Shown: positions 110 to 19,939 of the stretch, one piece after another
How the letters are laid out: every line of letters starts with the position of its first letter
Numbering within the stretch: the first letter of the stretch is position 1
Source: an uncultured delta proteobacterium
GTDB taxonomy: Bacteria; Desulfobacterota; Binatia; UBA9968
DNA length: 20,130 bases
NCBI GenBank assembly: GCA_963745835.1
Contig: CAVUZH010000017.1
Coordinates: 1 to 20,130 of the forward strand
Direction of reading: 5' to 3'
Notes under the pieces: generated by a model
What the model saw: only the letters and a program-made list of their open reading frames with translations
Databases searched by the model: none
What the model was told of the DNA's origin: nothing
Program-made: the position numbers and the translations under genes

Positions 110-1006
110 CTACACTGAGTGGCCATGTTTTAGTTGCAGTGATTTGCGCTTTCTCAGTAGCTCGACGAAGTCTTTGGCTATCGGGCTAAGCGGCTTTCGT
201 TCGTCAAAGACAATAAACGACTGGAGGGCTATTTTCTTTAATTCAGCTACGTCCAATTTGATGAGCACTCCGCTCTCAAGACCACTTCTGACTGAATCGC
301 CATGTAAAATCCCAATCCCCACGCCCTTCTGTACGGCAGCTTGCACCGCCCCCGAGTTCTTGCACGATACGGCAACTGTCGGTTTGTAACCGAGGCCTAA
401 CAGCTCTTTCAAGATCTTGCTCTCTTTTCTGATCACGAGCGGAACTCGAGCAAGATCCGCCAAAGTCATCCTTTTTCCGCGAAGCGGACTTGAAGCGGGT
501 GCAAACGCGATTACCTCCAGCCTTTGATAAGGTTCAACCGATAGATCCGCCTTGTACGAAGGGTGCGTGATTAGCCCTACATCGACAGATGCGGCGAAAA
601 TCTGCTGCTCAATCATTCGGCTGTCATCCGTTTCGAGCGTGAACTGAGTGCCCGGATGAGTTTGTTCAAACTCCATGATCGCTTCTGGAAGAACGGTGAT
701 ACAGAGATCATGTGTTCCCCCGATCTTCAGAGAGCCTGGCACCGTATCGGTCCGAGCCTCGAGCTGTTTCTCGAGCTTGGCAACCTCCTCCAAAACCGGC
801 TTGACAGCAGCGAGAAAAGCCGCGCCGCTTTCCGTCAACGCAATCCCCTGTCCGGTTTTCCGATAGAATTGTCTTCCATATCGTTGCTCCAGAAGCTTCA
901 GCTGGTGTGTTACCGCCGGCTGACTCATATGGAGCTCACTGGCGGCATTGGTAATGTTCAAATGCCTCGCTACTGAATCAAAAATCCTGAGCTGGTGAAG
1001 GGTCAT
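110..1006 (-). CDS. LysR-family transcriptional regulator
   Basis: 298 aa. N-terminal LysR HTH (MTLHQLRIFDSVARHLNITNAASELHMSQPAVTHQLKLLE), then GIALTESG linker and a substrate-binding domain (GSLKIGG...AVQKGVGIGIL). Divergent from the adjacent operon. Confidence 0.96.
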   Translation of the reverse strand: MTLHQLRIFDSVARHLNITNAASELHMSQPAVTHQLKLLEQRYGRQFYRKTGQGIALTESGAAFLAAVKPVLEEVAKLEKQLEARTDTVPGSLKIGGTHDLCITVLPEAIMEFEQTHPGTQFTLETDDSRMIEQQIFAASVDVGLITHPSYKADLSVEPYQRLEVIAFAPASSPLRGKRMTLADLARVPLVIRKESKILKELLGLGYKPTVAVSCKNSGAVQAAVQKGVGIGILHGDSVRSGLESGVLIKLDVAELKKIALQSFIVFDERKPLSPIAKDFVELLRKRKSLQLKHGHSV

Positions 1007-2314: not shown

Positions 2315-2938
2315 ATGAGCATCATGAACAGTACAACGAACTTGGTTACCATATTAAGTCCCAAGGTCCGACGTGTTCAGAAGGCGCAGACAAGCACATC
2401 AAAGCAAAGTCTGACGCTTAGCCCCGTTCCGCCGGATTTAAATGGAAAAACCATCGGGTTTCTCGACAACGGTAAGAAGAATTTCGATGTTTACCTCGAC
2501 CGCACCGACGAGCTGCTCCGTAGACATTACACCTTTACGACTCTACGCCGCCGCAAGGCCGTGCCCATAAAGGGTGTTACGTCGGACTTGTTTCAGGAGA
2601 TGATCACAGGCTGCGATGTTGTAATCACCGGCAGCGGAGATTGAGGCTCCTGCTCGTCGTGGAGTCTTCACGACATCGTCCAGTTCGAAAAGCACGGCAT
2701 TCCTGCAGTGGTCATTTGCACGCATGTTTTTGAGTCTACTGCCAAATTTCAAGCTAAGGCGCTTGGTTTGCCTGATGCACGAATCGTTGTGGTACCCCAT
2801 CCGTTTAGCGGAGTCGATGCCGCAGAGGCGGCAAAAAAAGCGGATCAGGCTTTTCCTGCCCTGCTCGCGCTCCTCTCGCGACCTAATGGCAAGTCTGCTT
2901 ATTACCGTAAGGTAAATCGCCGGAGAAACCAGCCATGA
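2315..2938 (+). CDS. UGSC-family selenoprotein, copy 1 (207 aa, Sec at codon 110, TGA 2642-2644)
   Basis: ORFs 2315..2644 and 2708..2938 share one frame, separated only by a TGA. Read-through gives DVVITGSGD-U-GSCSSWSLHDIVQFEKHGIPAVVICT...VPHPF. RBS GAGGTG upstream, SECIS-like hairpin downstream, same arrangement in the paralog at 15124, and the stop overlaps the next start (ATGA 2935-2938). Confidence 0.9.
2656..2674 (+). promoter_or_regulatory. Putative bacterial SECIS hairpin, copy 1
   Basis: GTCGTGGA-GTC-TTCACGAC: 8-bp stem (one G-U pair) with a G-containing apical loop, starting 11 nt after the in-frame TGA. Confidence 0.75.
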
Positions 2939-4011
2939 AAGTTGCTCTTCAAGCCGAAAGAATCGATTTGCCGGATTCGCTCGAAGAGATCAATCGTTAT
3001 CTTTACGCCAATGGTATGACGGACGGTCTTCCGATCGTACCTCCTACTGAAGACCGGGTTTCACGGATGCTGGAAGGAACCAGCCTCGAACCTTATTTCG
3101 AGGTGGCCTCGCTGCCCCCGGAGTGGGCGCCGGCGACGGTCGAAGCGATCGCAATCAATGCCGTGATGGCCGGCTGCCTGCCTGAGCATATGCCGGTGCT
3201 GATCACTCTTGTGAAAGCCATGGCCCAGCCGGAGTTCTCGCTTCTTGGTGTCCTCGCTACGACCGGGGGCTATGCCGTTTCGGTGATGCTCAATGGGCCG
3301 ATCAGACACGAGCTGGACATTAACTGCACCAACAATCTGTTTGGCCCCGGCAAGCTCGCCAACGCCACCATCGGGCGTGCTCTACGTCTCTTTCAACTCA
3401 ACATCGGCGGTGTCATTCCGGGTGTAACCGACAAGTCATGCCAGGGCTGGCCCGGCAAATACACAATTTGCTGGGGTGAAAATGAAGAAGCCTCGCCGTG
3501 GACTGCTTACCATGTAGAGAAAGGTTTTTCTCCAATGGATAACACGGTAACGATCTTCGCGGCAGATTCTTTTTGTAAGATTAGAGCTGGTGGCACGGTT
3601 GGGCGTGGCGCTCTGCAGTCGCTCGCCTATGGGACGCGTCCGGTCGGCGCGGTGTTAAATGGTTGGGGAAACGGCGCCAAACCGTTCATAGCTCTCGGAC
3701 CCGAGACAGCTAGTCAGATTGCTAGAGACAATATTTCAAAAGCGGAAGTGCGCGAGTATTTTTTCGAGCACGCACGCTCGTCGTTCGATGAGCTTTATCA
3801 GCCAGAGAGCGGCGAAAAGATCAGCTTCGAGGAGATGCAAAAGCGCTGTACGAATCTTTGGCCGGACGGAACGGTGAGCATCGCCGATCAGCCGGACGAC
3901 ATCAGCGTTGTTGTCGCGGGCGGACCGGGCCGACAATCCGTCTGGTTCCCAGCCAACGCTCGTTCCATGCCAGTCACCATGCTGATCGATCCGCTTCTGA
4001 AACGAACTTGA
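2935..4011 (+). CDS. Uncharacterised UGSC-associated protein (TDGLP...NAVMAGC family), copy 1
   Basis: 358 aa. Motifs TDGLPIVPPTE, IAINAVMAGC-PE, NGP, ANATIGR, GWPGKY, GENEE-SPW-HVE-GF and VVVAGG are shared with the paralog at 15726. Translationally coupled to the selenoprotein gene. Confidence 0.88.
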   Translation: MKVALQAERIDLPDSLEEINRYLYANGMTDGLPIVPPTEDRVSRMLEGTSLEPYFEVASLPPEWAPATVEAIAINAVMAGCLPEHMPVLITLVKAMAQPEFSLLGVLATTGGYAVSVMLNGPIRHELDINCTNNLFGPGKLANATIGRALRLFQLNIGGVIPGVTDKSCQGWPGKYTICWGENEEASPWTAYHVEKGFSPMDNTVTIFAADSFCKIRAGGTVGRGALQSLAYGTRPVGAVLNGWGNGAKPFIALGPETASQIARDNISKAEVREYFFEHARSSFDELYQPESGEKISFEEMQKRCTNLWPDGTVSIADQPDDISVVVAGGPGRQSVWFPANARSMPVTMLIDPLLKRT

Positions 4012-4041: not shown

Positions 4042-5052
4042 ATGCCATACGATAGAATATTCGCAGCCTCGTTTTCTTTAGCGATCTTTTTCATCTGGAC
4101 TCATTGCACTCGCGCTGCCGAGCCGATGGAAGAAGCCAGGAAGGAAGGTGAGGTCGTTTTCTACGGCAATGTGCGCCAAGAGCATATCACTAAGCTCAAT
4201 GAATCCTTCCAAAAAAAATATCCTTTTATCAAAGTTCAGTATCTCCGCGCAGGTCCTCTGGCGGTTATGAACCGAGTCATGACAGAAGCACGAGTTGGCA
4301 GCCGGCTTGTCGATGTTATCAATCTCGATGTCTTCAACTCCTGGGTATTAAAGGAAGCCGGACTGCTGCAGCCTTATAAATCCAGAGAGACCGAAGCTTT
4401 TCCGGAACAATACCGCGATCCCTCAGGGCTCGTGCCTTGCTGCATGTACGTCTCAAGCAACGTCATCGGCTATAACACCAAACTTGTTGCTCCACACGAA
4501 ATACCTAAAACGTATAACGATCTGCTCGATCAAAAATGGAAGGGAAAGATCGGTCTTAAAAGCGACGACTCGAAATGGTTTGCACCGCTTGTTTGGATTT
4601 GGGGCAGGGACAGAGCCGTCAACTACTTTCGCGGTCTCATCAAACAACAACCCGTGCTCCGCGAGGGAATTTCGATTAATGGCCAGCTGTTGGCGGCTGG
4701 TGAAGTAAGTGTATTTGTAAATATCGCCGGCGATGTCGTCCTGAATCTGCAATCGGTTGGCGCTCCCGTGGAGATAGTCCAAGCAGCGCCTTCGATCTTC
4801 CGCCCTGGGAATTTACTCTTAGCCAAGAACGCCCCTCATCCCAATGCCGCAAGATTGTTCATGGACTACGTTCATTCAGCCGAAGGTCAACAGGTCTTAG
4901 CGGATTTGGGCCGAGAGGTGGCAAGACCGGGCATCAAGATGAAATACCCGCGGCTCCAACAAACGAGCAACCTCGTCCCAGTCAAGCCTGAAATGGCGAA
5001 AAACTATGATGAGCTACTTAAGCTATACGAGTCGATTCTTAAGAACGGGTAG
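4042..5052 (+). CDS. ABC transporter substrate-binding protein, Fe3+/thiamine/polyamine-like (FbpA/AfuA-type)
   Basis: RBS AAGGAG; signal peptide; motifs EARKEGEVVFY, YNTKLV...PKTYNDLLDQKWKGKI and APHPNAARLFMDYVHSAEGQ. Ligand not determinable. Confidence 0.9.
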   Translation: MPYDRIFAASFSLAIFFIWTHCTRAAEPMEEARKEGEVVFYGNVRQEHITKLNESFQKKYPFIKVQYLRAGPLAVMNRVMTEARVGSRLVDVINLDVFNSWVLKEAGLLQPYKSRETEAFPEQYRDPSGLVPCCMYVSSNVIGYNTKLVAPHEIPKTYNDLLDQKWKGKIGLKSDDSKWFAPLVWIWGRDRAVNYFRGLIKQQPVLREGISINGQLLAAGEVSVFVNIAGDVVLNLQSVGAPVEIVQAAPSIFRPGNLLLAKNAPHPNAARLFMDYVHSAEGQQVLADLGREVARPGIKMKYPRLQQTSNLVPVKPEMAKNYDELLKLYESILKNG

Positions 5053-5070: not shown

Positions 5071-6051
5071 ATGATGGGAATAATCACAGTCGTCTTAATG
5101 CTCGTCTGCTTGCTGATGCAACCAGCCTTGGCTGCCGACAAGATTCGGATCGGATACTCCGGCTTAAGCCCGGCCACCGGGATGCTATGGGTTACTCAGG
5201 AGGCTAAGCTCTTCGAAAAGAATGGTCTTGCTCCCGAAGTGCTGTTCCTGCGTAACAACCTGGGCCAGGCGGCATTGATCGCGGGGGAAATCGAAATGTG
5301 CGGTTATTCCGCAAGCCTGTTGGCGCCCGCGCGTGTGCAAGGAGCCGATCCGTTGATGATCGTGAGCTTTCAGAAAAAGCTAAACTATCGTCTGGTGGTT
5401 CGGCCGGAGATTCGGACCTTGGAGGATCTCAAAGGCAAGGTTCTCGGGGTTACCCGTTATGGCACGGTGAACGATTGGACGATGCGACTGCTGCTCAACA
5501 AGCTGGGAATTAACCCCGAACGGGATGTCAGGTTGATTCAGGTAGGGGATTCGGCTCCCGCCGTCGCGACGTCGCTCATTGCCGGCAAAACGTTTGACGG
5601 CGCCCTGCTTCAGCCGCCTTTTTACAATAAGGCCGTGGAAACCGGTATGCGGGTCTTTGCCAATATGGAAGAGATGGACATTGCATTTCAGCAGACAGGG
5701 CTCAACACCACGCAGAGGTATATCACCAAAAATCCCGATATAGTACGCCGCGTCGTGAAGTCGGTCGTAGAGGGCGTGCATTTGATCCATACTAATCCAG
5801 CGCTGGCGAAGCGCGCGATCAGCCGTTACATGCAGATCAAAGATGAGAAGGCGGTCGAGGAGTCCTATCAGCAGCTGAAATCGACTTCTGAAATTAAACC
5901 TTATCCTTCGGCGGAGGGCTTCAAAACGATATTGGATGACTTGGCTAAAAAACTCCCGGCCGCGCGCACGGCAAACCCTCGGGACTTCATGGATGCGCGG
6001 TTTATTCAGGAACTGGACAAATCGGGATACATCGACGGCTTGTACAGGTGA
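5071..6051 (+). CDS. ABC transporter substrate-binding protein, NitT/TauT family
   Basis: Signal peptide ending ALA-ADKIRIGYSG; LKGKVLGVTRYGT; C-terminal FIQELDKSGYIDGLYR. Close paralog of the gene at 18072. Confidence 0.92.
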   Translation: MMGIITVVLMLVCLLMQPALAADKIRIGYSGLSPATGMLWVTQEAKLFEKNGLAPEVLFLRNNLGQAALIAGEIEMCGYSASLLAPARVQGADPLMIVSFQKKLNYRLVVRPEIRTLEDLKGKVLGVTRYGTVNDWTMRLLLNKLGINPERDVRLIQVGDSAPAVATSLIAGKTFDGALLQPPFYNKAVETGMRVFANMEEMDIAFQQTGLNTTQRYITKNPDIVRRVVKSVVEGVHLIHTNPALAKRAISRYMQIKDEKAVEESYQQLKSTSEIKPYPSAEGFKTILDDLAKKLPAARTANPRDFMDARFIQELDKSGYIDGLYR

Positions 6052-6075: not shown

Positions 6076-7161
6076 ATGCTGAGGAAACAATCTTGGAAAA
6101 TAACGGTTCTGGTCGTTTCTATTTTCTCCTTGTTCGGCTCCCATTCCGGACTGGTGCTCGCGCAGAGCCGCAGCGAGACGCTGCAAGCGATCTCTAAATT
6201 AAAGGGAAACGAAAGAGAAACAAAGCTTCGGGAAGGTGCCCGCAAAGAGGGAAATCTGATCTGGTATTCGAGCACCACCGCGGAAGATTCATTGGCACTG
6301 AATCGCAAATTCCAGGAGATCTATCCGTTCGTGAAGGTGCAGCATCTCCGCGCGCCGAGTGAGAAGATGATCGAAAGGATCCTGCTTGAGTCGCGGGCAG
6401 GCAGCTTCAAAGCCGATCTTGTTGCTCTGCCGGAGATCGAGCTGACGGTTTTGACCCAAAGAAAATTACTGTTGAAACATGCCGGTTTAGAGCACGAGGC
6501 GTTTCCCGCCGATGTCAAAGACCCGATGGGTTACTGGACGGGAATCTATGTGACTGCCTGGGTACTCGCCTATAATACCAATCTGCTGACAGCCCAGGCC
6601 GCGCCGAAAACCTATGCCGATCTGCTTAATCCCAAGTGGAAAAAACTGATGGGAATGGACACTGAACCTTACTCCTGGTTCATCACTTCCTTCCGCTATC
6701 TGGAAAGCCGGCAAGGCACGGCTGGAGCAACGGAATATTTCAAACGGTTGGCGTCTCAAGAGCTCGAATGGCGCAAAGGCCACAGCCTGATCGGTCAACT
6801 CATCGCGGCAGGGGAGTTCCCCATCGGCGTGGAGATGCAGGCCGGCTCGGTGGAGCGACTCAAGGCGCAGGGCGCTCCCGTCGATTGGGTGGCATTGGAT
6901 GGAGTCATGCCGATTAACAACGTTGGCATCAGCGTTACAACGGCGGGAGCCAATACACATGCTGCTTTGCTATATTATGATTTTCTTCTCTCCCGCACGG
7001 GCATGGAGATTATGAAATCCCGTAATAGAATTCCCACCCGTCCCGACGTTACAGTTCCCTATCTGAAGCCCTACAAGCTGCTGCCTTTCGATGCCCAGGT
7101 GGTGGATCACTTCGATCGTTACATCACCCAATTCAAAGACCTACTCAAACCCCGATCATGA
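6076..7161 (+). CDS. ABC transporter substrate-binding protein, Fe3+/thiamine/polyamine-like
   Basis: RBS AAGGAG; signal peptide; motifs GARKEGNLIWYS, YNTNLL...PKTYADLLNPKWK and AALLYYDFLLS. Paralog of the gene at 4042. Confidence 0.9.
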   Translation: MLRKQSWKITVLVVSIFSLFGSHSGLVLAQSRSETLQAISKLKGNERETKLREGARKEGNLIWYSSTTAEDSLALNRKFQEIYPFVKVQHLRAPSEKMIERILLESRAGSFKADLVALPEIELTVLTQRKLLLKHAGLEHEAFPADVKDPMGYWTGIYVTAWVLAYNTNLLTAQAAPKTYADLLNPKWKKLMGMDTEPYSWFITSFRYLESRQGTAGATEYFKRLASQELEWRKGHSLIGQLIAAGEFPIGVEMQAGSVERLKAQGAPVDWVALDGVMPINNVGISVTTAGANTHAALLYYDFLLSRTGMEIMKSRNRIPTRPDVTVPYLKPYKLLPFDAQVVDHFDRYITQFKDLLKPRS

Positions 7162-7481: not shown

Positions 7482-8915
7482 CTAGTAACGTGCCGCCAGC
7501 CATTCAGCGAAGAAATCATTTTCCCTGCCCTGGGTGTCGCCAAAGTAGGCGTTAGCCTGCGCTGGCGTGAGGGTGGGATCGATCTGGAGAGCGCAGGGAG
7601 CACACGGCCCACCGCCGTGTACGGCGCCTTCATTGAACGCAATCGTCTTGTCTAAGGTGGTAGCAGTATCATAAATGATTTCGTCCGGCCTGATGAAGTA
7701 ATGAGCGGTATGGGCGACAATGACCAGCGGCACTGTAATTCCCTTAACGTTTGTGACTGATGAGGTCGCGGACGAATCGTAATCGATTCCTGTCATGTCG
7801 TCCTTGGTGAGCGTGTACTTCCCAGGCGTACTGCGCAGCGCATGGGCTCCCAGCCAGACACGCACGTTGGCCGCGATCGAGGAATCAACGCAATCCAAGG
7901 CCTGATCCCTCTCCCCGGCAGGGACTCGAACCGACTCGATAATTTGCACGGGTCTTGTGCCGTCACGAGCCAAGAGCGTGTGTGCTCGCTTGGTGTATTT
8001 CAGCAAGCTTATATCGGGCTGCCACAACCTGGCGTTTTGAGAGCCGATGACAGTAAAGGGAATGTCATCTCCCAGTTGGCTCGGATCACGGGTGTCTCTT
8101 ATCTTTTTGCGGAGCAGCCGCAAGGCTTCATTAAGGATATCTTTATTGCGAATGGCTTGGTGAGTGGTGAAGGTCTTGTTGAACTGCTTGCTGTAGGTTG
8201 CGGCGTCCGTGTCCGGGTCGTAACCGTTGGCTTCAGCGAACATATCAAAAGCTGGCTGCCGCGGCTCGCAAGCATTGTTGTGGATTGCTGGGTCGACATT
8301 CACAAATGTCGCCAGCGCGTCTCCCAGGTGAGCATCGCGAAGTATCACGCCGTCCGCCTTGGGCAAGTTGTGCAGGTTCGTATCATCGCAAGGAATGATC
8401 TTCTCCGGTCCCTGGCACACCCCCGGGCCGTTTTCTGCGACATTCTGATAAAACAGCATCAGAGGTGCTCCCATGCTAAAGCCTAACAGCACGACTTCAG
8501 TAACGGGTGGTTGCTCTGGTGTAGCAGCAATGTTTTTGAGGTAATTTATCGAGGATCGAATACCAGGAGCATGCTGCTCATAGCCGTAGTACTCAAGATC
8601 ACGGCCGCTAAACTCACTGTTGGTGCAGAACACCGTGAATCCTCGCTCGGCCAACGGGGCGCAGACGGCATTGTTGATATAGCGCGAATTAGGGTGCATG
8701 ACGAGTATGCCGACATGGGCTCGCCCGAGCACGTTGGCGGTGGGTCGCCGCAATGTCGCCGCCTCTAAGTTGAGATTCGCTGTTGCGCAATTTTGTACAG
8801 TGCTACATATGACACTAGTTGTGATCGGCTGAAGCTGAGCTTCCGATACCGAGATCCATGCAATGCTACAAATTACGATGACTGCAAAACCGAAAGTGAA
8901 TATTCGTTTAAACAT
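7482..8915 (-). CDS. Secreted alpha/beta hydrolase (putative esterase), paralog A
   Basis: Start at 8915 (MFKRIF) after AGGAG; signal peptide; nucleophile elbow LLGFSMG; DAH after strand 6; C-terminal EGAVHGGGPCAPC; ends WLAARY. Confidence 0.8.
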   Translation of the reverse strand: MFKRIFTFGFAVIVICSIAWISVSEAQLQPITTSVICSTVQNCATANLNLEAATLRRPTANVLGRAHVGILVMHPNSRYINNAVCAPLAERGFTVFCTNSEFSGRDLEYYGYEQHAPGIRSSINYLKNIAATPEQPPVTEVVLLGFSMGAPLMLFYQNVAENGPGVCQGPEKIIPCDDTNLHNLPKADGVILRDAHLGDALATFVNVDPAIHNNACEPRQPAFDMFAEANGYDPDTDAATYSKQFNKTFTTHQAIRNKDILNEALRLLRKKIRDTRDPSQLGDDIPFTVIGSQNARLWQPDISLLKYTKRAHTLLARDGTRPVQIIESVRVPAGERDQALDCVDSSIAANVRVWLGAHALRSTPGKYTLTKDDMTGIDYDSSATSSVTNVKGITVPLVIVAHTAHYFIRPDEIIYDTATTLDKTIAFNEGAVHGGGPCAPCALQIDPTLTPAQANAYFGDTQGRENDFFAEWLAARY

Positions 8916-8977
8916 ATTTTCTCCTAAAAGCATTCGCGGCTATTTGGCTACATTTCGAATGAGATTTCCCATCTGGA

Positions 8978-10318
8978 CTAGAACCGGCCGTTCGCCCACG
9001 CAGCAACGTAATCGTAAATGTTTTTACGCGCGTTCGAATAGTCAACCCCGGTGACCGCCGTACATTCGGTGCAACCTGTCCCTCCGTGAGTTGCTCCTTC
9101 AATTACGATGAAGTCCTTATCAGCCATTGCCCCATTCTCAAAAAGTATTTCATTGTCACGGATGAAATAGTGCGCTCCCATAGCAGCTATCAGGACTGGA
9201 ACATGGATTTCGCGAATGGCGCAGACGGTGGTGTCGTTTGCCGAACACCAGTCAATCCCATCCAGCGAGTGGGTCGCTCGAATTGCATTGGCAGTCAAGA
9301 ACGAAGTGATCCTTAGCTCACTGACCCCGGCACTATTTCCAGAGCCCATTAGTCGATCGTCTTCCGCGATACCCGGATCGGGAATGCGTACAGAGTTGAC
9401 GACTTGTGTCACGATTGTACCATCGTTCTTCAGGAGCTTTGCAGGATTCAAAGTTCCGCGGTGAACGCCCGTGCTTGCGTCAGACAGTCGAGCGGCCGTC
9501 CTATAGATGGTGAACGTATCCTCATCGACAGGTTGATATGTTCCTTCTGCCATTCTTCGCTTGATTTCCAGCGCCTTGTCGATGAGATTATTCATGCGAA
9601 CAGCCTGAGCCCGGAAATACCGGTCTTGAAACTCCATGGAATAAACGGAATCCCCGTTGGGGTTGAATCCGTTTTTTTCGCTGAACGGATCAAGCCTAGG
9701 ATTGATTGATTGAAACGGCCTATTTTCATTCATCACAGATGCGTTAACACTGCGCAGTGTGTTCACCGAAACCCCTGGGTGGGCGTCCAAATAAACAATG
9801 CCGTTAGCTCTATCTGTGGGCACAAAGCCAGCCAGCCTCTCAGAACTGCACTCAACGATCTTGTTAGGGCCTTGGCAATATGCCGGGCCATTTTCGGCTA
9901 CCGCTTGATAAAAGGACATGACGGGGCCACCACCACTGGGACCAATGAGAATGACTGTGCTGATTCCCGGCTGCGACCGCAGAAAGCGAACGCCGGAGCG
10001 AACGTCGAGAGCAATGTCCTGCCAATCCACTTGCGCTTCATTATTCGCGAACCGCACGTTCATGCCGAGAACCATAAAGCCACGACTTGACAATTCGGTC
10101 GTCGACGTGTGCGTCACGTAGCTGCTGTTACGATGAGTCACCAAAAACGCGATCTGCGGCGGTGGACCCGAGTTAGGGACGTAAAGTGCGCCGATTGCGC
10201 CGCTGCCCAACGGGATGAATCGTGGATTGCTTTGGGCTAATGCGCTGGCTGCGCCGTTGGTGATTCCGAAAACTAAAAATAAGCCAAACAACATTAACAG
10301 CACTCGCAGTTTTGACAT
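8978..10318 (-). CDS. Secreted alpha/beta hydrolase (putative esterase), paralog B
   Basis: Start at 10318 (MSKLRV) after GGAGGG; signal peptide ending ALA-Q; elbow LIGPSGG; shares FYQ-VAENGP-CQGP-KI-C, DAH-G, AHYFIR and EGATHGGTGCTEC with paralog A. Confidence 0.8.
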   Translation of the reverse strand: MSKLRVLLMLFGLFLVFGITNGAASALAQSNPRFIPLGSGAIGALYVPNSGPPPQIAFLVTHRNSSYVTHTSTTELSSRGFMVLGMNVRFANNEAQVDWQDIALDVRSGVRFLRSQPGISTVILIGPSGGGPVMSFYQAVAENGPAYCQGPNKIVECSSERLAGFVPTDRANGIVYLDAHPGVSVNTLRSVNASVMNENRPFQSINPRLDPFSEKNGFNPNGDSVYSMEFQDRYFRAQAVRMNNLIDKALEIKRRMAEGTYQPVDEDTFTIYRTAARLSDASTGVHRGTLNPAKLLKNDGTIVTQVVNSVRIPDPGIAEDDRLMGSGNSAGVSELRITSFLTANAIRATHSLDGIDWCSANDTTVCAIREIHVPVLIAAMGAHYFIRDNEILFENGAMADKDFIVIEGATHGGTGCTECTAVTGVDYSNARKNIYDYVAAWANGRF

Positions 10319-10435
10319 GAGTAACCCTCCCTTTTGTGTTTTCGGATTCCTGGTACAAGAAACCTCTGCCAAGTTAAGACTTACGGACGCTGTACCGGCG
10401 GTCCTCTGCTCATCTCTAATCGAGATTGTGATGAA

Positions 10436-10671: not shown

Positions 10672-11658
10672 CTATTTTCCCCTTGCCTTCCTCTCCTGAG
10701 CAAGCTGCTCTAGGAAAGATAAATCCAATAACTCGAGAACGTTCAATTTCATCGAGGAGAGATTCTTATCGTTGGCAATCACGTTCTCCATCGCTTTAGC
10801 CGTAACGATCGGCAATCCCGGAGTTACCTGACTATAGACTCTGCGGGTCTCTTCCAGCTCCTCGACTACGTTGGAACGATAGTATTCACCCAAATATTTA
10901 AGAACTCGATCTTTGTTTCTCTCGTCCCGGTAAAAGTCCATTCCATCGGCCAATCCGCGCATAAAGTTCATGACCGTCTCCCTATCGGTGCGGATGAACG
11001 ACCGCATGGTCACCGGTCCGGCAATTGTGTATTCGAAATCCTCCTTGGAAAAATCGAGAAACGTCGGATAACCGGCTTTGCGCGCCTTCAGCGTAAAAGG
11101 CGATTGCAGAACCGTCGCCTGAATCTGTCCCAGCGTCAATGCTGTCCAACGATCTCCCTGGCCGCCAATGCCGACGATCTGGACGTCTTTATCAGGATTT
11201 AACCCGAGTCGCCGAACGGCGACGCGGGCGATAAAGTCCGTGCTCGATCCAATTTGACTGACGCCGATTCGCTTTCCTTTGAGATCGGCATGCTGCTTGA
11301 TCGTTGGATGCGCCGCTACGATGTAGTCCAAGCGATTGCCGACGGCGCCGATTATCTGAAACTCCTTGGCGCCCTGCGCCCACGCCGCGACGACAGTGGA
11401 TGCGCCTTGGAGCTGCAGCGGCAGGTCGCCCGAGAGAGCAGCCTGAATTCCCATGAGGCCGCCGCGAATGTAGATGGGTTCGAGCTTCAAGCCGTATTTT
11501 TCGAACGAGCCCGAGCGGTACGCAACCCAAAAGTAACTAGAGGAACCGCCCAGCGGATACCCAACCTTAATTTCCCGCAACTTGCTATTCTGGGCAGAAG
11601 CAAAGCAGGGAAAAACCAACATGCAGCACAGCAGGTATAAAATTATCTTGCGTTTCAT
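10672..11658 (-). CDS. ABC transporter substrate-binding protein, NitT/TauT family
   Basis: Signal peptide MKRKIILYLL...ASA; LKGKRIGVSQIGSSTDF; GLNPDKDVQIV; FMRGLADG. Confidence 0.92.
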   Translation of the reverse strand: MKRKIILYLLCCMLVFPCFASAQNSKLREIKVGYPLGGSSSYFWVAYRSGSFEKYGLKLEPIYIRGGLMGIQAALSGDLPLQLQGASTVVAAWAQGAKEFQIIGAVGNRLDYIVAAHPTIKQHADLKGKRIGVSQIGSSTDFIARVAVRRLGLNPDKDVQIVGIGGQGDRWTALTLGQIQATVLQSPFTLKARKAGYPTFLDFSKEDFEYTIAGPVTMRSFIRTDRETVMNFMRGLADGMDFYRDERNKDRVLKYLGEYYRSNVVEELEETRRVYSQVTPGLPIVTAKAMENVIANDKNLSSMKLNVLELLDLSFLEQLAQERKARGK

Positions 11659-11718: not shown

Positions 11719-13545
11719 TCACTGTGTCCTGAACCCATTGCTCTGACTCCCCGGATTTGCATTCGGATTTTGGGAGTTCGACGGATTGTTGGAATTACCG
11801 CCTCCGGGAGCGCTGTTGGGGTTATCAGAAGCCAGATTGTGCCAGCTCTGACGGTTACCTTCGCACGTAAAGTTGCTTGCGACGTTGATATCGCCGGAAC
11901 CGATATAGCGGGTCTGTTTCGGATAGGGGCACAGCGGACGGCTGCGGGATGCCACTCCGAAGTAGCCGGGGTTGCTGGCCGTTGCGATAACCTTATCCGG
12001 CGCGACGCCGTTTTCCACCCAATTGATAATCTCTGGAAACATTTCGAAGTCATCTGTTGAAGGCCCACCACTACAATGATTCATGCCAGGCACCACAAAC
12101 AACCGTACATAGTTCGCGGCCTTATGGTCTTGGGCAAGCACGTCGTTGTACCAGTCGATCGTTGCATTAACTGAAAACGCGCCGTCCGCTCCACCGTGGT
12201 AAACGATCATTTTGCCGCCGTTAGCCTTGAACGCGGATAGGTCGGTGGAGTCGACTGATCCCAGCTCAGCCGCCGATTCGGTATATATGCCCCCTGTTTC
12301 GTGTATCCTTTCAAGGAAGGTATCGAAATCGAAATCCAGCTGGAACGGAACACAGTCTATGGCGGTGACAAACGGTATCAATGGATGGGCAGTATACCTG
12401 AGCGCTGATGATGCACAGCTCCTGGTTACTCTCTGGGCATTGTTGGTGGTCGCGTTAAACGAACCAAGCACCCAAGAGCGCCAGCCTTGGTTGAAGGTGG
12501 AGCCTGACCGACCGCCGATACCCGGATCCCATGGCCAGTTGGCATACAGCTGGGTTCCGTCGGAGTCCTTCATTCCCGCCATCACAGTCTGAAGCGCCGC
12601 GATCTGATCCGCCGTCAGGCAATCGGCGGTTTTTGCGCCAGTGCACGTCACCGCCGCCAGAGCGGCATTCACCCGACCTGACTTGCATGCCGGCATGTTG
12701 TCGACGATCCCGTCTTTAAGGCCATCCAGCCGATCGCATGCCGCCAAAACGGCATTCCGTATTAGTAATAGATCCTCGTCGGTGTAGATTTTATTGATGA
12801 GGGGGTTGCCTGCGGAGTCAAAGCTCGTCGCTATTTTAGCGAAAACTTGTGTGGCATAAGCGCCGTTCGCCGACGAGTGTGGCCGCAGAATGCCGGGATC
12901 TCCGGCGACGATGCCGTCGAAATGTTTCGGAAACGTCTGCGCCATCAGCATCGCTTCCGCCCCACCTTGGGAACACCCGACATAATAAGAAAATAGGGGC
13001 TTCTGTCCATAATAGATGCCAACCAACTCTTTCCCCACTCGAGCGGTCTGGTCATAAGAGTTATAGGAGAAATCGATTCTGGCTTGTGGATCGATGGAGA
13101 ATACGTTCGTGCCACCTACATTGGGATCAGTGTTGGTCTCATTATCATGTCCGGAATCAGTGCCGATCGTGACGTAGCCTAGCGGCAGAATAGTCGTCGG
13201 ATCTTCAACGGTACCGTTGCTGCCGCCGCCGCCGCCCATGTAGAATCGCTCGTTCCACGCGGAGGGCATGCGTACACGGAACTTGATGGCATAAACCTGT
13301 CCGAGCACACCTACTCGCTCGTTGATCTTGCCATCGACAAGACAATGCTCTGGCAGACTCTGGGTAGCCGGGGTAAGCACAGCCGACGTGATAACGACCT
13401 TCGGGATAGTGGGGCTGGTAAACTCCGTAAGGGAACTGCAGGCGACAATGGGAGCCGGAGTAGCGTGTGCGTCGGGGATCGCCGCCATCATCATAATAGC
13501 CCCGCCAAGACACCCGAGTAGTCGCGCCTTCGTAAAGATGTTCAT
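11719..13545 (-). CDS. Tannase/feruloyl esterase family hydrolase, MHETase-like
   Basis: Start at 13545 (MNIFTK) after GAGGAG; signal peptide; catalytic GCSQGG (Ser codon 12970-12972), YHGGADGAFS and PGMNHCSGGP (the CS-D-HC tannase signature); RPLCPYP; lid segment NQGWRSWVLGSFN...NNAQRV. Confidence 0.93.
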   Translation of the reverse strand: MNIFTKARLLGCLGGAIMMMAAIPDAHATPAPIVACSSLTEFTSPTIPKVVITSAVLTPATQSLPEHCLVDGKINERVGVLGQVYAIKFRVRMPSAWNERFYMGGGGGSNGTVEDPTTILPLGYVTIGTDSGHDNETNTDPNVGGTNVFSIDPQARIDFSYNSYDQTARVGKELVGIYYGQKPLFSYYVGCSQGGAEAMLMAQTFPKHFDGIVAGDPGILRPHSSANGAYATQVFAKIATSFDSAGNPLINKIYTDEDLLLIRNAVLAACDRLDGLKDGIVDNMPACKSGRVNAALAAVTCTGAKTADCLTADQIAALQTVMAGMKDSDGTQLYANWPWDPGIGGRSGSTFNQGWRSWVLGSFNATTNNAQRVTRSCASSALRYTAHPLIPFVTAIDCVPFQLDFDFDTFLERIHETGGIYTESAAELGSVDSTDLSAFKANGGKMIVYHGGADGAFSVNATIDWYNDVLAQDHKAANYVRLFVVPGMNHCSGGPSTDDFEMFPEIINWVENGVAPDKVIATASNPGYFGVASRSRPLCPYPKQTRYIGSGDINVASNFTCEGNRQSWHNLASDNPNSAPGGGNSNNPSNSQNPNANPGSQSNGFRTQ

Positions 13546-14016: not shown

Positions 14017-14904
14017 CTATTGTAAACCCAGCACTCGCGCCGGAACCTTTTGGGCCATGGTTTTGACCTCGTCGACGCTCATACCATGAAATAGTAACTG
14101 GCCGATGAAGCTGCGAAAGTTCTCCGCCGGCAATGGACTAAATGCCTGGCCGCCGTCCACCGTCATGGCGCACCGCTCAACGCCAACGCCGCGCGCCGCT
14201 TCGATCAACGGCTTCGGGTTCATCCCAGGACGATACACCAGCTCGATAATGGCGCCTTGGCCGGCCATCTGCCGCCGTAACTCCAGGGGCGTGTCGTCGC
14301 GCACATGGCTGACGACAATTCTCTGGATGCCGTGGCGCTGCGCTTCGGCTACCAGCATAAGATGTTCCTCCACGGAGATGTGACCGGTGGCGACCACCAT
14401 GTCGTTGGCCTTGGCGATGTCGAGTATCTCGTGCATCTCGGGCAACAACCGGCCGCGCTCATCGACGACTACGATACCAGGGCGGCCACGCAAACCCACC
14501 GGCGGGCGCGCCTTAGAACCGCTGCGTCGGCCTGAAGCGTGATACTCAGCGTTCCAGGTCGGAGCGAACAAAACCTTGCTGCCGATCTTCACCGCTACCT
14601 CTACGGCGAATGGGTTTAGGCCTCCGAGCGAGTAGTTCAACACCACCGTGCCGAACAAACTCACTTCGGGAAACAGTGGCTGAATCGTTCGTACCAGAGC
14701 GCCGGTAGGCCAGTGATGGCTCTTCATCACCACAGCGCGCATACCCGCCTCTTTTGCCTGGCGCGCCGTGCCGATGCCGTCGAGCCTTCGGGCCACGGCG
14801 AGATCAGCGGTCGGAGGCATGTCTGGGCCGAAATGGACATGCATGTCGATAGCGCCATGCATAATCTCGTCGATCAACGCGCTAAAATTTTCTTGCGTCA
14901 GCAT
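14017..14904 (-). CDS. Metal-dependent TIM-barrel hydrolase (amidohydrolase-like; DUF6282-like)
   Basis: GAIDMHVHFGPD (D-x-H-x-H), VMKSHH, ATGH, VSH and TVDGGQ metal-ligand pattern. Likely start 14904 after AAAGGA. DUF assignment is from memory. Confidence 0.78.
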   Translation of the reverse strand: MLTQENFSALIDEIMHGAIDMHVHFGPDMPPTADLAVARRLDGIGTARQAKEAGMRAVVMKSHHWPTGALVRTIQPLFPEVSLFGTVVLNYSLGGLNPFAVEVAVKIGSKVLFAPTWNAEYHASGRRSGSKARPPVGLRGRPGIVVVDERGRLLPEMHEILDIAKANDMVVATGHISVEEHLMLVAEAQRHGIQRIVVSHVRDDTPLELRRQMAGQGAIIELVYRPGMNPKPLIEAARGVGVERCAMTVDGGQAFSPLPAENFRSFIGQLLFHGMSVDEVKTMAQKVPARVLGLQ

Positions 14905-14989
14905 AATAGATCCTTTCGAACTTACTCGTCGTGGTCGCGCTGTATAGCAGATCCGTCGCAATGTGGAAAGCATGAATCACACGATCTCT

Positions 14990-15123: not shown

Positions 15124-15675
15124 ATGATTATCTTAAGCCCGGAAGGGAAGGCGCGAATATCATCGGAGCGGATTCCCGCCTTACCACGATTTGCAGATCT
15201 GAATGGCAAGACTGTGGGATTTTTGGACAACAGCAAGCCCAATAACGATCTATTGCAGTCGCGTTTTGAGCAGCTGCTGCGACAAAATTGCGATGTGGGT
15301 GGCGTTGTCCGGCGACGAAAGCTGACCGCGCAGCAAGGGGCGCCCAAAGCGTACCTCGATGAACTCGCTGCTCAGTCCGATGTCGTTATCAGCGGACTGG
15401 GAGATTGAGGGTCGTGCACATCGTGGAGTATCCACGATTCCATCGAACTGCAAAAAAGAGGCAGACTCGCGGTCACCGTCGTCTCTCATCCTTTTGAAGC
15501 GCTCGCGAAGTCGGAGCGCGAAGCTTTCGGCGCTCCCGATTCCCCTATCTTGATCGTGCAGCATCCGATCGGCACGGTGAAACCGGAGGAGGTTAAAAAG
15601 CGCGCTGACGCCGCCTTCGACAAGCTGCTCGAAGCCTTGCTCCATTCGCACCAGGGCACAAATGGAGCGTCATAA
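15124..15675 (+). CDS. UGSC-family selenoprotein, copy 2 (183 aa, Sec at codon 95, TGA 15406-15408)
   Basis: DLNGKTVGFLDNSK...DVVISGLGD-U-GSCTSWSIHDSIELQKRG...IVQHPIG, open to TAA at 15673-15675. Homology to copy 1 continues on both sides of the TGA. Confidence 0.9.
15420..15438 (+). promoter_or_regulatory. Putative bacterial SECIS hairpin, copy 2
   Basis: ATCGTGGA-GTA-TCCACGAT: perfect 8-bp stem starting 11 nt after the TGA, with pairing-preserving changes relative to copy 1. Confidence 0.8.
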
Positions 15676-15725: not shown

Positions 15726-16778
15726 ATGACACAGCAAGAACTCCAAGCGGAACGGATTGAAATTGAAGATGATCTTTGGGCGGCTAACGATTTTTTCGAA
15801 ACGAAGGGTTGGAGTGACGGACTACCGATCATTCCTCCTACGGAAGAGCGTGTCGCGCGGATGCTAGGCGCGACTAGGCGCAACCGGGATGAGGTAATCG
15901 GCACGGTGCCACCGAAGTGGGCGCCAGCTACTGTGGAGAAAATTGCCATCAACGCCGTCATGGCTGGCTGCAAACCTGAATACATGCCGGTGCTTATCGC
16001 CTCTGTCGAAGCCATCACCGAACCAAAACTTAATCTTTATGCACTGCAAGCAACCACTGGCGGGCCGGCGGTGATGCTCATCATCAACGGTCCGGTGCGG
16101 CATCAGATTCAGGTCAATGGTGAGTCGAATGCGCTCGGCGAAGGCTGGCGCGCCAACGCGACGATCGGTCGTTGCATTCGTCTCATCCAGCGAAACATTG
16201 GTGGCTCCTATCCAGGAACGACTTGCAAGGCAACGCTTGGTTGGCCTGGCAAGTACTCCATCTGTATCGGTGAGAACGAAGAGGCTAGTCCGTGGGAGCC
16301 GCTGCATGTCGAGCGCGGCTTTGACAAGAATTCGAGCACTGTCACCGCGATCAGCGCGGACGGTTCCGTTCGCGCTTCTGATCTTGACAGCACGAACGCC
16401 GCAGGTGTGCTGACCAATTTTGCTCAAAAAATGGATGGGCCTTCAGGACCGGAAGCCATCATGGTGGTCTGCCCGGAGCACGCCAAAATCATCGCCAATG
16501 ACGGCTTCAGTAAGAAGGATGTGCAACGGTTTATTTGGGAGCGAGCAGCTTACCGCATGAAAGATTTGCCGGAAGAAACTTTTTATCAAAGGGTAAAGCG
16601 TTGGTCACACCGAAATCTAACCCGTGAGAGTGTCATTCCTGTGACCGATCGACCCGAGGATATTGTCGTTGTTGTGGCAGGTGGTGACGGTTCTCAATCG
16701 CAGTATATCCACGTGTGGGGTCAGAGCACTCCCGAGGGCGGATCGACACGGTCGGTAACCAAAGCCGTACGGGACTAG
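15726..16778 (+). CDS. Uncharacterised UGSC-associated protein (SDGLP...NAVMAGC family), copy 2
   Basis: GWSDGLPIIPPTEERV, IAINAVMAGCKPE, RANATIGR, GWPGKY, GENEEASPWEPLHVERGF, VVVAGG; paralog of 2935..4011. ATG at 15726 follows AAGGA (the track starts at TTG 15711). Confidence 0.88.
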   Translation: MTQQELQAERIEIEDDLWAANDFFETKGWSDGLPIIPPTEERVARMLGATRRNRDEVIGTVPPKWAPATVEKIAINAVMAGCKPEYMPVLIASVEAITEPKLNLYALQATTGGPAVMLIINGPVRHQIQVNGESNALGEGWRANATIGRCIRLIQRNIGGSYPGTTCKATLGWPGKYSICIGENEEASPWEPLHVERGFDKNSSTVTAISADGSVRASDLDSTNAAGVLTNFAQKMDGPSGPEAIMVVCPEHAKIIANDGFSKKDVQRFIWERAAYRMKDLPEETFYQRVKRWSHRNLTRESVIPVTDRPEDIVVVVAGGDGSQSQYIHVWGQSTPEGGSTRSVTKAVRD

Positions 16779-19035: not shown

Positions 19036-19939
19036 ATGGAACAATATGACATTGTTATTGTCGGCGGCGGCATGGCCGGGCTGAGTGCTTGCCATGTATG
19101 GTGGATGGCTTGGTCGCAAGGTATTACTCGCCGAGCGGCAAATGTTTGGCGGTCAAATCATCAACGCGGATCAGGTGGAAAACTATCCCGGCTTTCCTGA
19201 CGGGGTACTCGGCGCTGACCTCGTCGCGCAGGTGCGAGCACAGGCGCTGAAGTTTGGCGCAACGATGCAATATCTTGAGATCACCTCGATCGAAAAACCT
19301 GATAGCGCGTTTGTCCTTCAATCGAATGACGGTGTTTATGGCGCGCAAAGCGTGATCGTCGCTACCGGGGGAAATCCGCGTCGACTCGGGATTAAAGGCG
19401 AAGTCGAGCTTGAAGGCCGAGGCGTTTCCCGCTGCGCGACTTGTGATGGAGCCTTCTTCGCGGAAAAACCGGTGGTTGTTCTCGGCGGCGGTGATACAGC
19501 TTTGGATGAAGCGCTGTATCTTGCAGGTATTGCAAATAAGGTAGCTGTCATTCATCAGACTGAACAACCGACAGCGAGTGCTGCGCTTGTGAGGCGCGCG
19601 AGAGGAAATGACAAGATCGAGTGGCTTTCCCGCGCTTCAATTACGGAAATCATCGGCAGCGAATCCGTTGAAGCCTTGCGACTCAGCCAAGGTGACGAAA
19701 TCGCCACGGCAGCCATGTTCATTGCCATTGGTTTTGAACCGGAAACGGCCCTATTGAGAAGCCTCATCGAGATCGACCGTATGGGTCATGCACCCGTCGA
19801 TCTTCATATGCAAACGTCTGTTCCTGGTTTATTCGCGGTCGGTTCCGCTCGACAAGGAAGCTCGGGACAAATCTCATCTGTCACCGGCGATGGGGTTACA
19901 GCCGCCATTTTTTCTGATCGTTACATTTCTGCGAAATAG
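19036..19939 (+). CDS. trxB: Thioredoxin-disulfide reductase-like flavoprotein with a +1 frameshift near the 5' end (pseudogene or sequencing error)
   Basis: MEQYDIVIVGGGMAGLSA begins at 19036 and continues as AMYGG...GGQI...VENYPGF...GRGVSRCATCDG...GGGDTALDEA...TSVPGLFAVG in the next frame. One extra T at 19089/19090; removing it gives 300 aa. Confidence 0.85.

Follow-up and report, generated by a model that had tools for sequence, protein, structure and literature searches.

Selenoproteins of the UGSC family have been in print since 2007–2008 (Zhang & Gladyshev, PMC1976440, PMC2398784). In the Global Ocean Sampling (GOS) data, where it accounts for 255 Sec sequences, the family is one of the most abundant among selenoproteins (PMC2398784). 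A table in the same paper displays a UxxC motif common to UGSC and PrdB, and its text reports a fusion termed 'UGSC/Unknown_1' and guesses at a thioredoxin-like (Trx-like) fold. A 2026 review (PMC13188914) counts UGSC among the selenoproteins with largely uncharacterized functions, and a search of the full-text literature on the UGSC family, DUF6282 and Unknown_1 yielded no functional study among the papers listed. In Dataset S1 of PMC2398784, UGSC reads from GOS continue into DGLP(I/V)VPPT...AVNGVMAGCRPEYMP (the NGVMAGC region). Since these reads run from UGSC into such motifs, the published fusion would represent the same pairing as found at the locus described here, and we infer from these sequences that 'Unknown_1' is the published name of the partner family introduced below.

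The locus lies on a stretch of 20,130 nucleotides, analysed as a whole and referred to as the window (Table 1). As pointed out in an earlier note on this DNA, it carries two selenoprotein genes, each of which is followed by one gene of a common family of about 350 amino acids. These two gene pairs are referred to as module 1 and module 2.

Table 1. Features of the window, with positions counted from its first letter
Feature	Position	Strand	Details
LysR-type regulator	110..1006	-	divergent from module 1 operon; best NCBIfam model NF040786
UGSC-family selenoprotein 1	2315..2938	+	207 aa; Sec110 (U110) = TGA 2642-2644; motif D-U-G-S-C
SECIS-like hairpin 1	2656..2674	+	8 bp stem, loop GUC; starts 14 nt after the U of UGA
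Partner enzyme 1	2935..4011	+	358 aa; unnamed family; conserved C81 (NAVMAGC), C179, E182, R148
DUF6282 (amidohydrolase-like) gene	14017..14973	-	PF19799, E 1.4e-57; divergent from module 2
UGSC-family selenoprotein 2	15124..15675	+	183 aa; Sec95 (U95) = TGA 15406-15408
SECIS-like hairpin 2	15420..15438	+	8 bp stem, loop GUA; z-score -2.0 (59-nt stretch)
Partner enzyme 2	15726..16778	+	350 aa from ATG 15726; TTG at 15711 also open
Thioredoxin-reductase-like gene	19036..19939	+	TIGR01292, E 2.4e-79, below its cut-off; CATC active site kept

Both selenoproteins of the window are members of the UGSC family. They score 143.5 and 133.8 bits against NF041046 (cut-off 125), and 168 and 153 bits against PF24696 (cut-off 25; E 2.8e-49 and 1.1e-44), while sharing 40% sequence identity with each other. 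The motifs quoted in the earlier note (DVVITGSGDUGSC, EKHGIPAVVICT, RIVVVPHP) are all present in the translation of selenoprotein 1. Its description as a new selenoprotein does not hold, since membership lies above the curated cut-offs and a fusion with the partner was already contained in the 2008 paper. The U/C-G-S-C motif with in-frame TGA and downstream SECIS-like hairpin was found for both genes. A protein homology search with the window's UGSC (C in place of U) returned none of 775 candidates at E ≤ 0.001, probably because gene callers cut selenoproteins at the TGA; UGSC homologues were taken from the loci of partner genes. At the position of Sec, the UGSC homologues adjoining partner genes in other genomes carry TGA in 73 of 77 cases and TGC in the other four. 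Of 70 distinct homologous sequences, 64 keep the hairpin with 6 or all 7 of its pairs, and pair 21–27 alternates between GC (40 sequences) and CG (28). Together, the shared TGA codon and the conserved hairpin behind it place the presence of Sec in these gene pairs far beyond chance. An Rfam search of the window displayed no family.

The AF2 model of selenoprotein 1 (pLDDT 87.2) displays a five-strand, flavodoxin-like α/β fold in the order b-a-b-a-b-a-b-a-b-a, with U110 at the N-terminus of helix 111–126. The best PDB fold matches are likewise flavodoxin-like (azoreductases, flavodoxin and receiver domains; E 4e-5 to 4e-4), hence the Trx-like fold guessed previously is borne out neither by the model nor by these matches. 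A profile search of the PDB with UGSC gave nothing meaningful, the best entry being a designed coiled coil (E 0.0043).

The partner proteins match no model in Pfam or NCBIfam. Their family comprises 7405 representatives (clusters at 50% identity, E ≤ 0.001), and the motifs noticed earlier (DGLP..PPT, NAVMAGC, NATIGR, GWPGKY..GENEE) are indeed conserved features of it. The two copies in the window are 44% identical and have the invariant motifs in common; the ATG listed as start of the second copy agrees with the starts of its homologues. In 151 diverse sequences C81 is conserved in 143, C179 in 135 and E182 in all 151, and R148 is near-invariant. The AF2 model of partner 1 (pLDDT 87.3, pTM 0.90) places C81 between two helices, in a helix-turn-helix setting. 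None of 500 listed Foldseek matches of this model in the PDB reaches E ≤ 0.001. The matches to class I fumarate hydratase (E 1.9e-3, TM 0.24) and cyanuric acid hydrolase, with TM values of about 0.17–0.26, were not accepted as a sign of kinship. A PDB profile search with the partner likewise gave nothing meaningful (best E 0.091, a helicase). Matches in the ESM Atlas are solely unnamed clusters of the same family; two of the clusters of this family there bear the automatic name 'thioredoxin', and one contains UGSC in 16% of its members. As no partner relative of known function is detectable, the term 'reductase' used below is derived from the redox companions of the family alone.

Gene order ties the two families together. 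A UGSC gene lies within 400 bp and on the same strand for 69 of 95 partner genes (77 loci from 77 genomes), 43 times upstream and 26 times downstream of the partner gene. Partner-UGSC fusions occur in both orders, and a UGSC domain is present in 48 of the best 150 partner representatives (of 7405). Among these 48, 30 begin just after the Sec codon and 4 end just before it; the other 14 are full-length, non-Sec UGSC forms. The conserved co-occurrence and fusion of the two families, whose absence would have spoken against the earlier note, were found in this survey. In module 1, the UGSC stop TGA (2936–2938) overlaps the partner ATG at 2935 (ATGA), which suggests coupled translation. Read-through of TGA 2936 fusing gene 1 to the partner was rejected, as the two genes lie in different frames.

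For docking, a natural Cys-form fusion (P0207) was divided into its UGSC and partner halves; it is a relative of the window's own pair, with 36–43% identity to the window proteins. The halves gave an ipSAE of 0.77, compared to 0.00 for the best control. Among solved complexes 116 of 157 attain this value, as do 2 of 215 mismatched pairs; these counts hold only roughly here because a custom 10-row alignment was used for docking. Contact agreement between runs was at least 88%, and partner pLDDT at least 81. In window numbering, the predicted interface involves U110, G111, S112, S114-W116, H119, F139 and strand 8–21 of UGSC, and P36-T38, P61-W64, E70, A73-N75, V77, M78, T109, T110, G158 and G159 of the partner. 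The Sec site is thereby predicted to dock on the most conserved surface of the partner family. The Sec site lies in the predicted interface; the MAGC cysteine C81 is not among the residues named there, nor is C179. Profile and fold searches of the PDB with UGSC and partner displayed no similar solved complex. Adjacency, fusions in both orders and the docking of the Cys-form halves support the earlier idea that the two families act together, and UGSC and partner probably form a redox enzyme.

Several companions point to the source of electrons. A thioredoxin reductase (TrxR) domain is fused to the partner in 16 of 46 long partner forms, in either order and with its CxxC kept; TrxR-type electron supply, as formerly suggested, is therefore plausible. 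On a plasmid of Variovorax sp. SRS16, a trxB gene and the pair form one row (trxB-tctC-SDR-partner-UGSC). The TrxR-like gene of the window is a possible electron donor; it is frameshifted near 19088–19092, with the GxGxxG start at ATG 19036 in another frame, and just 2 of the 77 loci have a homologue of it close to the pair. Fused Trx-Msr and AhpF-AhpC systems are known examples of Trx/TrxR combined with Trx-dependent reductases. In the loci L052 and L057 and in the representative P0139, an AhpC/TSA-type CxxC redoxin domain takes the place of UGSC. In 4 of the 14 full-length fused UGSC domains the U site holds neither Cys nor Sec (S, I, I, S), and in these fusions the partner retains C81, C179 and E182. 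One further UGSC (L016:9405) is devoid of the redox residue, and its partner has L at position 179. As UGSC can be exchanged for a CxxC domain or be redox-dead while the partner cysteines are kept, a role as redox carrier fits better than one as obligatory substrate nucleophile.

Based on this dataset, we give an even chance to a model in which each module encodes a two-subunit selenol/thiol oxidoreductase, with a TrxR-fed relay to a catalytic partner. The partner would be the catalytic subunit, with a conserved surface containing C81, C179, the invariant E182 and the near-invariant R148. UGSC would act as a small flavodoxin-like domain with its U-G-S-C redox centre at a helix N-terminus, and would bind the conserved surface of the partner through this centre together with its conserved N-terminal strand. 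Electrons would most likely pass from NAD(P)H via a TrxR-type flavoprotein to UGSC, where the Sec-x-x-Cys pair would accept them, and from there to the partner cysteines or to a substrate bound there, so that the partner may reduce a small organic substrate.

The neighbouring genes vary. Module 2 is followed by two NMT1/SsuA-like binding-protein genes and the TrxR-like gene. The earlier account of this region stands for the binding proteins and for the TrxB-like gene, frameshifted as it is, but the CoA-transferase listed there is an open-ended fragment of 53 amino acids (19970–20128) without a Pfam match, whose motif suggests the N-terminal end of a family III CoA-transferase. DUF6282 is a recurrent neighbour: homologues are found in 3 of 77 loci, and on a Natrinema plasmid such a gene comes immediately behind the pair. 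The LysR regulator scores 138 bits against NF040786 ('selenium metabolism-associated LysR'), below the cut-off of 250; 3 of 4 annotated plasmid contexts examined have LysR genes close to the pair. The window's neighbours (binding proteins, esterases, TrxB, DUF6282) were rejected as core parts, none of them recurring in more than 3 of 77 loci. Recurrent neighbours are SDR (8 loci of 77), TctC (7), CoA-transferase III (6), amidase (5), luciferase-like (5), TauD-family (4) and ComA (2) genes.

Some of these genes may suggest that the pair handles sulfur or selenium, reducing or transferring a persulfide, perselenide, polysulfide or organosulfur compound instead of a carbon substrate. On a plasmid of Paracoccus ferrooxidans, genes for DsrE, TusA and cysteine desulfurase are found in the vicinity of the pair, and selB follows 3.3 kb downstream of it. 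The binding proteins of the window are of the SsuA/TauA (sulfonate) type, and the TauD, luciferase-like and ComA genes would fit as well. However, each of these neighbours is confined to a small minority of the loci, NMT1/SsuA-like proteins bind many ligands, and no sulfur-trafficking gene is conserved with the pair in the 77 loci. Such a role appears very unlikely.

The other recurrent neighbours (SDR, TctC, CoA-transferase III, amidase) are ordinary catabolic enzymes that need no reductase. They would be compatible with the partner being a non-redox enzyme, such as a hydratase, isomerase or hydrolase that depends on a cysteine, and UGSC serving as its dedicated guardian, which would protect the active-site cysteines from oxidation, or as a redox switch of its activity. 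About 10 of the 95 partner genes (77 loci) are solitary, several of them in Poribacteria, and together with the redox-dead fusions these indicate that in some lineages a redox-active UGSC is dispensable for the partner. The weak best fold matches of the partner are also hydratases and hydrolases, but these matches are not significant (see above). Moreover, the TrxR fusions and the use of costly Sec in 73 of 77 homologues suggest turnover-linked electron flow and not occasional repair, which makes a non-redox partner quite unlikely.

The earlier note had classified the selenoprotein as a GrdB/PrdB-like catalytic subunit. If this were so, Sec of UGSC would directly attack a substrate held by the partner, breaking a C-N (or similar) bond the way glycine or D-proline reductase does, and the thioredoxin system would afterwards reduce the Se-S bond left behind. 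The models compared were TIGR01917, TIGR01918, TIGR04483 and PF07355. TIGR01917 (glycine reductase selenoprotein B) is weakly matched by 13 of 30 UGSC members (best E 1.2e-6), TIGR01918 by 9, GrdF by 9, GrdH by 5 and PrdB by 1. Residues 72–167 of the window UGSC align to profile positions 307–398 of 431 in TIGR01917, which presumably include GrdB's own Sec. The likeness of the Sec region to GrdB is accordingly weak and repeated, but far below the cut-offs, with 19.2 bits against 602.2 for TIGR01917 and 12.1 against 65.45 for TIGR01918. None of the 30 members matches PF07355 (Pfam GRDB) at E ≤ 1. In favour of this assignment, the UxxC motif is as in PrdB, the Sec site lies at the predicted interface, and the order of partner-UGSC fusions resembles GrdB, with a long N-terminal part followed by the Sec domain. 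Against it, neither a GrdE/PrdA-like pyruvoyl subunit nor GrdA, GrdC or GrdD is found among the 17 large ORFs of the window, an absence that the earlier note had seen correctly, and Grd/Prd pyruvoyl-subunit models match none of 29 partner sequences at E ≤ 1. A role of the partner's invariant Cys in a pyruvoyl proenzyme was rejected based on the helix-turn-helix setting of C81 in the model and on the missing similarity to GrdE/PrdA; pyruvoyl-forming residues are usually located in strand turns. In addition, a CxxC redoxin domain can stand in for UGSC, which is redox-dead in some fusions, and many hosts belong to lineages (haloarchaea, Paracoccus, Variovorax) that are aerobic or facultative, unlike Stickland fermenters. 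With scores far below all cut-offs, and both the N-terminal part of GrdB and its pyruvoyl partner absent, the classification as a GrdB/PrdB-like subunit is not supported, and a mechanism of this type seems unlikely.

Extending the relay model beyond this locus, we tentatively hypothesize that UGSC and its partner form a widespread, previously unrecognised class of selenium-dependent reductases, built on a TrxR-UGSC relay and a catalytic fold without solved relative. Its members may perform a reductive step, e.g. the cleavage of a C-N, C-S or C-O bond, when organic acids or amines are broken down, mostly in aerobic bacteria and haloarchaea. If true, such a class would account for a selenoprotein family that ranks among the most abundant in aquatic metagenomes. 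The tie to one large family, the docking of the Sec site and the TrxR-type wiring render the question of UGSC function testable. The pair is present in cultured hosts (Paracoccus versutus, Variovorax sp. SRS16, Natrinema, Natrialba asiatica, Sporomusa termitida), some of which, such as Natrialba asiatica, have natural Cys forms that lend themselves more readily to expression; a natural Cys-form pair also occurs in a Sphingomonas MAG. Given its 7405 clusters, the partner family merits a family model of its own.

Compared to the described UGSC family, the window proteins display the same U-G-S-C motif and hairpin after the UGA, and nothing sets them apart. With GrdB, GrdF and GrdH (glycine, sarcosine and betaine reductases) and with PrdB (D-proline reductase), UGSC has the UxxC Sec centre in common, and what may be a weak local profile similarity around it. 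PrdB works with a second, substrate-binding subunit, PrdA (mechanism in PMC11229817), to which the pair described here may be likened, and in both cases reducing power would come through a thiol system. However, UGSC measures 183–207 amino acids as compared to a GrdB model of 431 positions, the partner is unrelated to GrdE/PrdA in all searches, and the pyruvoyl-forming subunit, GrdA and protein C are absent in the window. Like the Trx/TrxR systems, UGSC has a small X-G-x-C redox centre where a helix begins, can be swapped for a CxxC Trx-fold domain, and belongs to a pair with fusions to a low-Mr TrxR domain and a target with conserved cysteines. Unlike Trx, it does not adopt the Trx fold, mostly employs Sec, and appears dedicated to one partner family instead of serving as a general reductant.

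Features of the window (nucleotide positions)
Feature	Position	Strand	Remarks
UGSC selenoprotein 1	2315-2938	+	ATG 2315; TGA read as Sec: 207 aa, one internal TGA (U110, 2642-2644)
Partner gene 1	2935-4011	+	~350-aa product
UGSC selenoprotein 2	15124-15675	+	183 aa, U95 at 15406-15408
Partner gene 2	15726-16778	+	~350-aa product; TTG 15711 also open
SECIS-like hairpins	2656-2674; 15420-15438	+	start 14 nt past U of UGA
Solute-binding-protein genes (n = 7)	1118-2206, 4042-5052, 5071-6051, 6076-7161, 10672-11658, 17048-18040, 18009-19031		
Esterase-like cluster between the modules	7482-8933, 8978-10372, 11719-13617	-	
TrxR-like gene	19036-19939		frameshifted near 19088-19092
Open-ended 53-aa frame	19970-20128		candidate CoA-transferase N-terminus

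The two selenoproteins of the window (40% identical) belong to a known family: both score above the curated thresholds of NCBIfam NF041046 ("UGSC family (seleno)protein"; 143.5 and 133.8 against 125 bits) and of Pfam PF24696 (E 2.8e-49 for selenoprotein 1, 1.1e-44 for selenoprotein 2). A "UGSC-containing protein" of then unknown function was published in 2007-2008 (PMC1976440, PMC2398784), with 255 Sec sequences in Global Ocean Sampling data (PMC2398784), and a 2026 review includes UGSC in a set of selenoproteins for which "biological functions remain largely uncharacterized" (PMC13188914). Judged from homologous sequences, the Sec reading of the window TGA codons is sound: in UGSC homologues adjoining partner genes in other genomes, the codon is TGA in 73 of 77 and TGC in four.

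At least six of seven pairs of the hairpin following this codon are formed in 64 of 70 distinct homologous sequences, and 92% of hairpin cells are paired, versus 15-53% with the 3' arm slid by 1-3 bases. One pair alternates between GC (n = 40) and CG (n = 28), and the loop starts with GU in 68 of 70 sequences. This agrees with the features of bacterial SECIS elements; an Rfam search of the window gave no match. In the window and in homologous loci, the hairpin is made of codons for S-W-S-x-H-D, and the GC/CG swap coincides with a Trp/Cys swap (UGG/UGC) at W116, a predicted interface residue, so that RNA and protein constraints are entangled here. On the Paracoccus ferrooxidans plasmid pFER4 (L079; 6420-8077, 11392-13167), the annotation breaks the UGSC gene at the TGA into two short hypothetical proteins; this pair has genes for DsrE, TusA and cysteine desulfurase upstream and selB 3.3 kb downstream.

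The stop codon of the selenoprotein 1 gene (TGA 2936-2938) overlaps the ATG of partner gene 1 (2935). All motifs quoted in the earlier note recur in the window translations, as does its partner protein, encoded twice, each time 3' of a selenoprotein gene; the copies belong to one family and are 44% identical. With one exception, a member with an inserted metallo-beta-lactamase piece, neither these copies nor, at E ≤ 1, any of 29 aligned members matched a Pfam or NCBIfam model. A word-based search found 6691 relatives among 8000 candidates scored; source-given names among the 120 of these that were listed are all "hypothetical protein". When 1.84 billion representatives were scanned in full with HMMER, 7405 matched at E ≤ 0.001, of which 2361 at E ≤ 1e-30. 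RefSeq likewise uses "hypothetical protein" for plasmid-borne members from cultured Paracoccus, Natrinema, Variovorax, Sporomusa and others. AlphaFold2 gives a confident model (pLDDT 87.3, pTM 0.90); among 500 Foldseek matches listed there is no solved relative at E ≤ 0.001, the best being class I fumarate hydratase (E 1.9e-3, TM 0.24), and a profile search of PDB sequences found nothing. Across 151 diverse sequences, G80 and E182 (partner 1 numbering) are invariant and R148 is kept in 150; Cys stands at position 81 (in NAVMAGC) in 143 sequences and at position 179, immediately ahead of GENEE, in 135.

The UGSC and partner families go together. When one genome per species was scanned with the partner as seed, 77 loci with 95 partner genes were recovered; by record title these stem from Binatia, Dehalococcoidia, Methylomirabilota, Vicinamibacterales, Burkholderiales, Poribacteria and one haloarchaeon. 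A same-strand UGSC gene lies within 400 bp of 69 partner genes (43 upstream, 26 downstream) and within 1500 bp of eight more; UGSC is absent near 18, six of them close to a locus edge. Conversely, 70 of the 78 UGSC genes in these loci lie within 400 bp of a partner gene, a count biased by the use of the partner as seed. UGSC runs on into the partner as one continuous frame in L013, L015 (three tandem copies), L024, the Cys-form L061, L063 and, truncated by the locus end, L042; L013 also holds a frame in the reverse order. Among the 150 best partner representatives, 48 carry a UGSC domain: 30 start just past the Sec codon and four end just short of it, which is what gene calling that terminates at UGA would produce, and 14 are full-length non-Sec forms. 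The pairing of the two families proposed in the earlier note is supported by adjacency and by fusion in both orders.

In a further six of these 150 representatives the partner domain is duplicated in tandem; polypeptides with such a duplication (637-741 aa) are P0128, P0175, P0182, P0183, P0224, P0256 and P0286. UGSC-partner fusions without Cys or Sec at the U site carry G (L016:9405-11123), S (P0204, P0288) or I (P0231, P0277) there; their partner halves all retain C81, and C179 is kept except in L016, which has L instead. In L021 (7290-9689), from a Chloroflexi genome with many partner paralogues, a gene for a glycyl-radical enzyme (PFL-like + Gly_radical) comes after a solitary partner gene.

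Docking was run on P0207, a natural Cys-form fusion that is 36-43% identical to the proteins of the window: its two halves score 0.77 (best control 0.00). Of 157 solved complexes 116 attain this mark, as do 2 of 215 mismatched pairs; given a self-made alignment, these counts hold only roughly. The runs share at least 88% of contacts, partner pLDDT is at least 81, and memorisation by the predictor is an unlikely source of the score because no similar complex has been solved. Mapped to window numbering, the predicted UGSC interface comprises strand 8-21 (with invariant P16), U110-S112, S114-W116, H119 and F139, and that of the partner P36-T38, P61-W64, E70, A73-N75, V77, M78, T109, T110, G158 and G159, the most conserved motifs of its family. 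Sec is at the predicted interface; C81 and C179 are not among its named residues. M78 is one helical turn from C81.

Further fusions bear on electron supply. In L052 and L057 (Vicinamibacterales loci) and in P0139, UGSC is replaced by an AhpC/TSA-type thioredoxin-fold CxxC domain fused to the partner. The linker of these fusions (L052:5047-7080, L057:2587-4266, P0139) holds a conserved RPGC(A/G)S(R/K)(A/V)HDPD, which recalls the UGSC...HD motif and may be its remnant. Of 46 long partner homologues (>627 aa), 16 carry a TrxR-type flavoprotein domain, in either order (five checked), with the active-site CxxC intact in both sequences read; the others carry UGSC (21), redoxin, AMP-binding or methyltransferase domains (one each) or no Pfam domain (six, including the tandem P0128). 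A Variovorax sp. SRS16 plasmid carries, in this order, trxB, tctC, SDR, the partner and, at the place of UGSC, a gene for a hypothetical protein of 170 aa. As the earlier note described, module 2 continues through two binding-protein genes to a TrxR-like gene. This gene begins with GxGxxG (MEQYDIVIVGGGMAGLSA) in one frame, from ATG 19036, and continues in a different one from ~19090, reflecting either an assembly error or a pseudogene. A homologue lies near the pair in just 2 of 77 loci, which speaks against an invariable trio of genes; in most cases the electrons would have to come from a housekeeping reductase.

Based on this dataset, we regard a selenol/thiol relay as the most likely working model, with about an even chance of being correct. 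NAD(P)H would feed a TrxR-type flavoprotein, which would reduce the Sec-x-x-Cys pair of UGSC; reduced UGSC would then act as electron donor, either for the two cysteines of the partner or for a substrate held at the interface of the two proteins, and the partner would work as the reductase. That UGSC is instead a guardian or switch on a non-redox enzyme appears unlikely, and that the pair handles sulfur or selenium is improbable.

Apart from the pair, nothing is conserved across the 77 loci. The commonest neighbour clusters are SDR (8 loci), TctC binding proteins (7), CoA-transferase III (6), luciferase-like monooxygenases and amidases (5 each), and TauD, acyl-CoA dehydrogenase and HIBADH-like genes (4 each); further neighbours, from the annotated plasmids, are enoyl-CoA hydratase, HMG-CoA lyase, amidohydrolase, Rieske, ETF and MFS genes. 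A recurrent neighbour is DUF6282, present in the window, in 3 of 77 loci and on the Natrinema plasmid. In many genomes several pairs coexist (three in tandem in L015, two in the window), which together with the catabolic neighbours suggests paralogues, each specific for its own substrate, in gene islands for the catabolism of organic acids, CoA esters or amines. The seven solute-binding proteins are NMT1/SsuA-like (five) or SBP_bac_6/PhnS-like (two), and no permease or ATPase gene is found anywhere in the window. The 53-aa frame resembles, by a motif, the N-terminus of family III CoA-transferases, with no Pfam match at E ≤ 1e-4. Between the modules, two genes encode secreted-looking 464-483-aa proteins with G-x-S-x-G-like motifs; these match nothing in Pfam or NCBIfam, and a relative in L009 weakly matches alpha/beta-hydrolase. 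Next to them is a gene of the tannase/feruloyl-esterase family (PF07519, E 2.3e-108).

The UGSC family and its fusion to the partner domain are already known: a fusion "UGSC/Unknown_1" was reported in 2008 (PMC2398784), and reads of that dataset continue from UGSC into DGLP(I/V)VPPT...NGVMAGC, by which "Unknown_1" would be the partner domain. In the openly accessible literature searched, we found no report of operon linkage in two orders, partner family size, redoxin replacement, TrxR fusions, a flavodoxin-like UGSC fold or a predicted Sec-bearing interface. UGSC is predicted to adopt a flavodoxin-like a/b fold of five strands in which Sec is located at a helix N-terminus, and its PDB fold neighbours are generic flavodoxin-like proteins, in contrast to the Trx-like fold suggested in 2008.

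The likeness to the GrdB/PrdB Sec region put forward in the earlier note is real, but weak. Among 30 UGSC members, 13 match the glycine reductase selenoprotein B model (best E 1.2e-6), nine TIGR01918, nine GrdF, five GrdH and one PrdB, all far below family cut-offs, and none matches Pfam GRDB. A mechanism on GrdB/PrdB lines, in which Sec itself would attack the substrate, appears rather unlikely; it is weakened because a CxxC domain can stand in for UGSC, because 4 of the 14 full-length fused UGSC forms lack Cys or Sec at the U site while their partner retains C81, C179 and E182, and because a carbonyl-cofactor subunit is absent. Profile searches of the window and of the 29 aligned partner members found nothing similar to GrdE/PrdA, GrdA, GrdC or GrdD, in agreement with the first reading of the window. 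GrdB has a long N-terminal part that UGSC lacks, and the matches always cover the stretch around the Sec codon.
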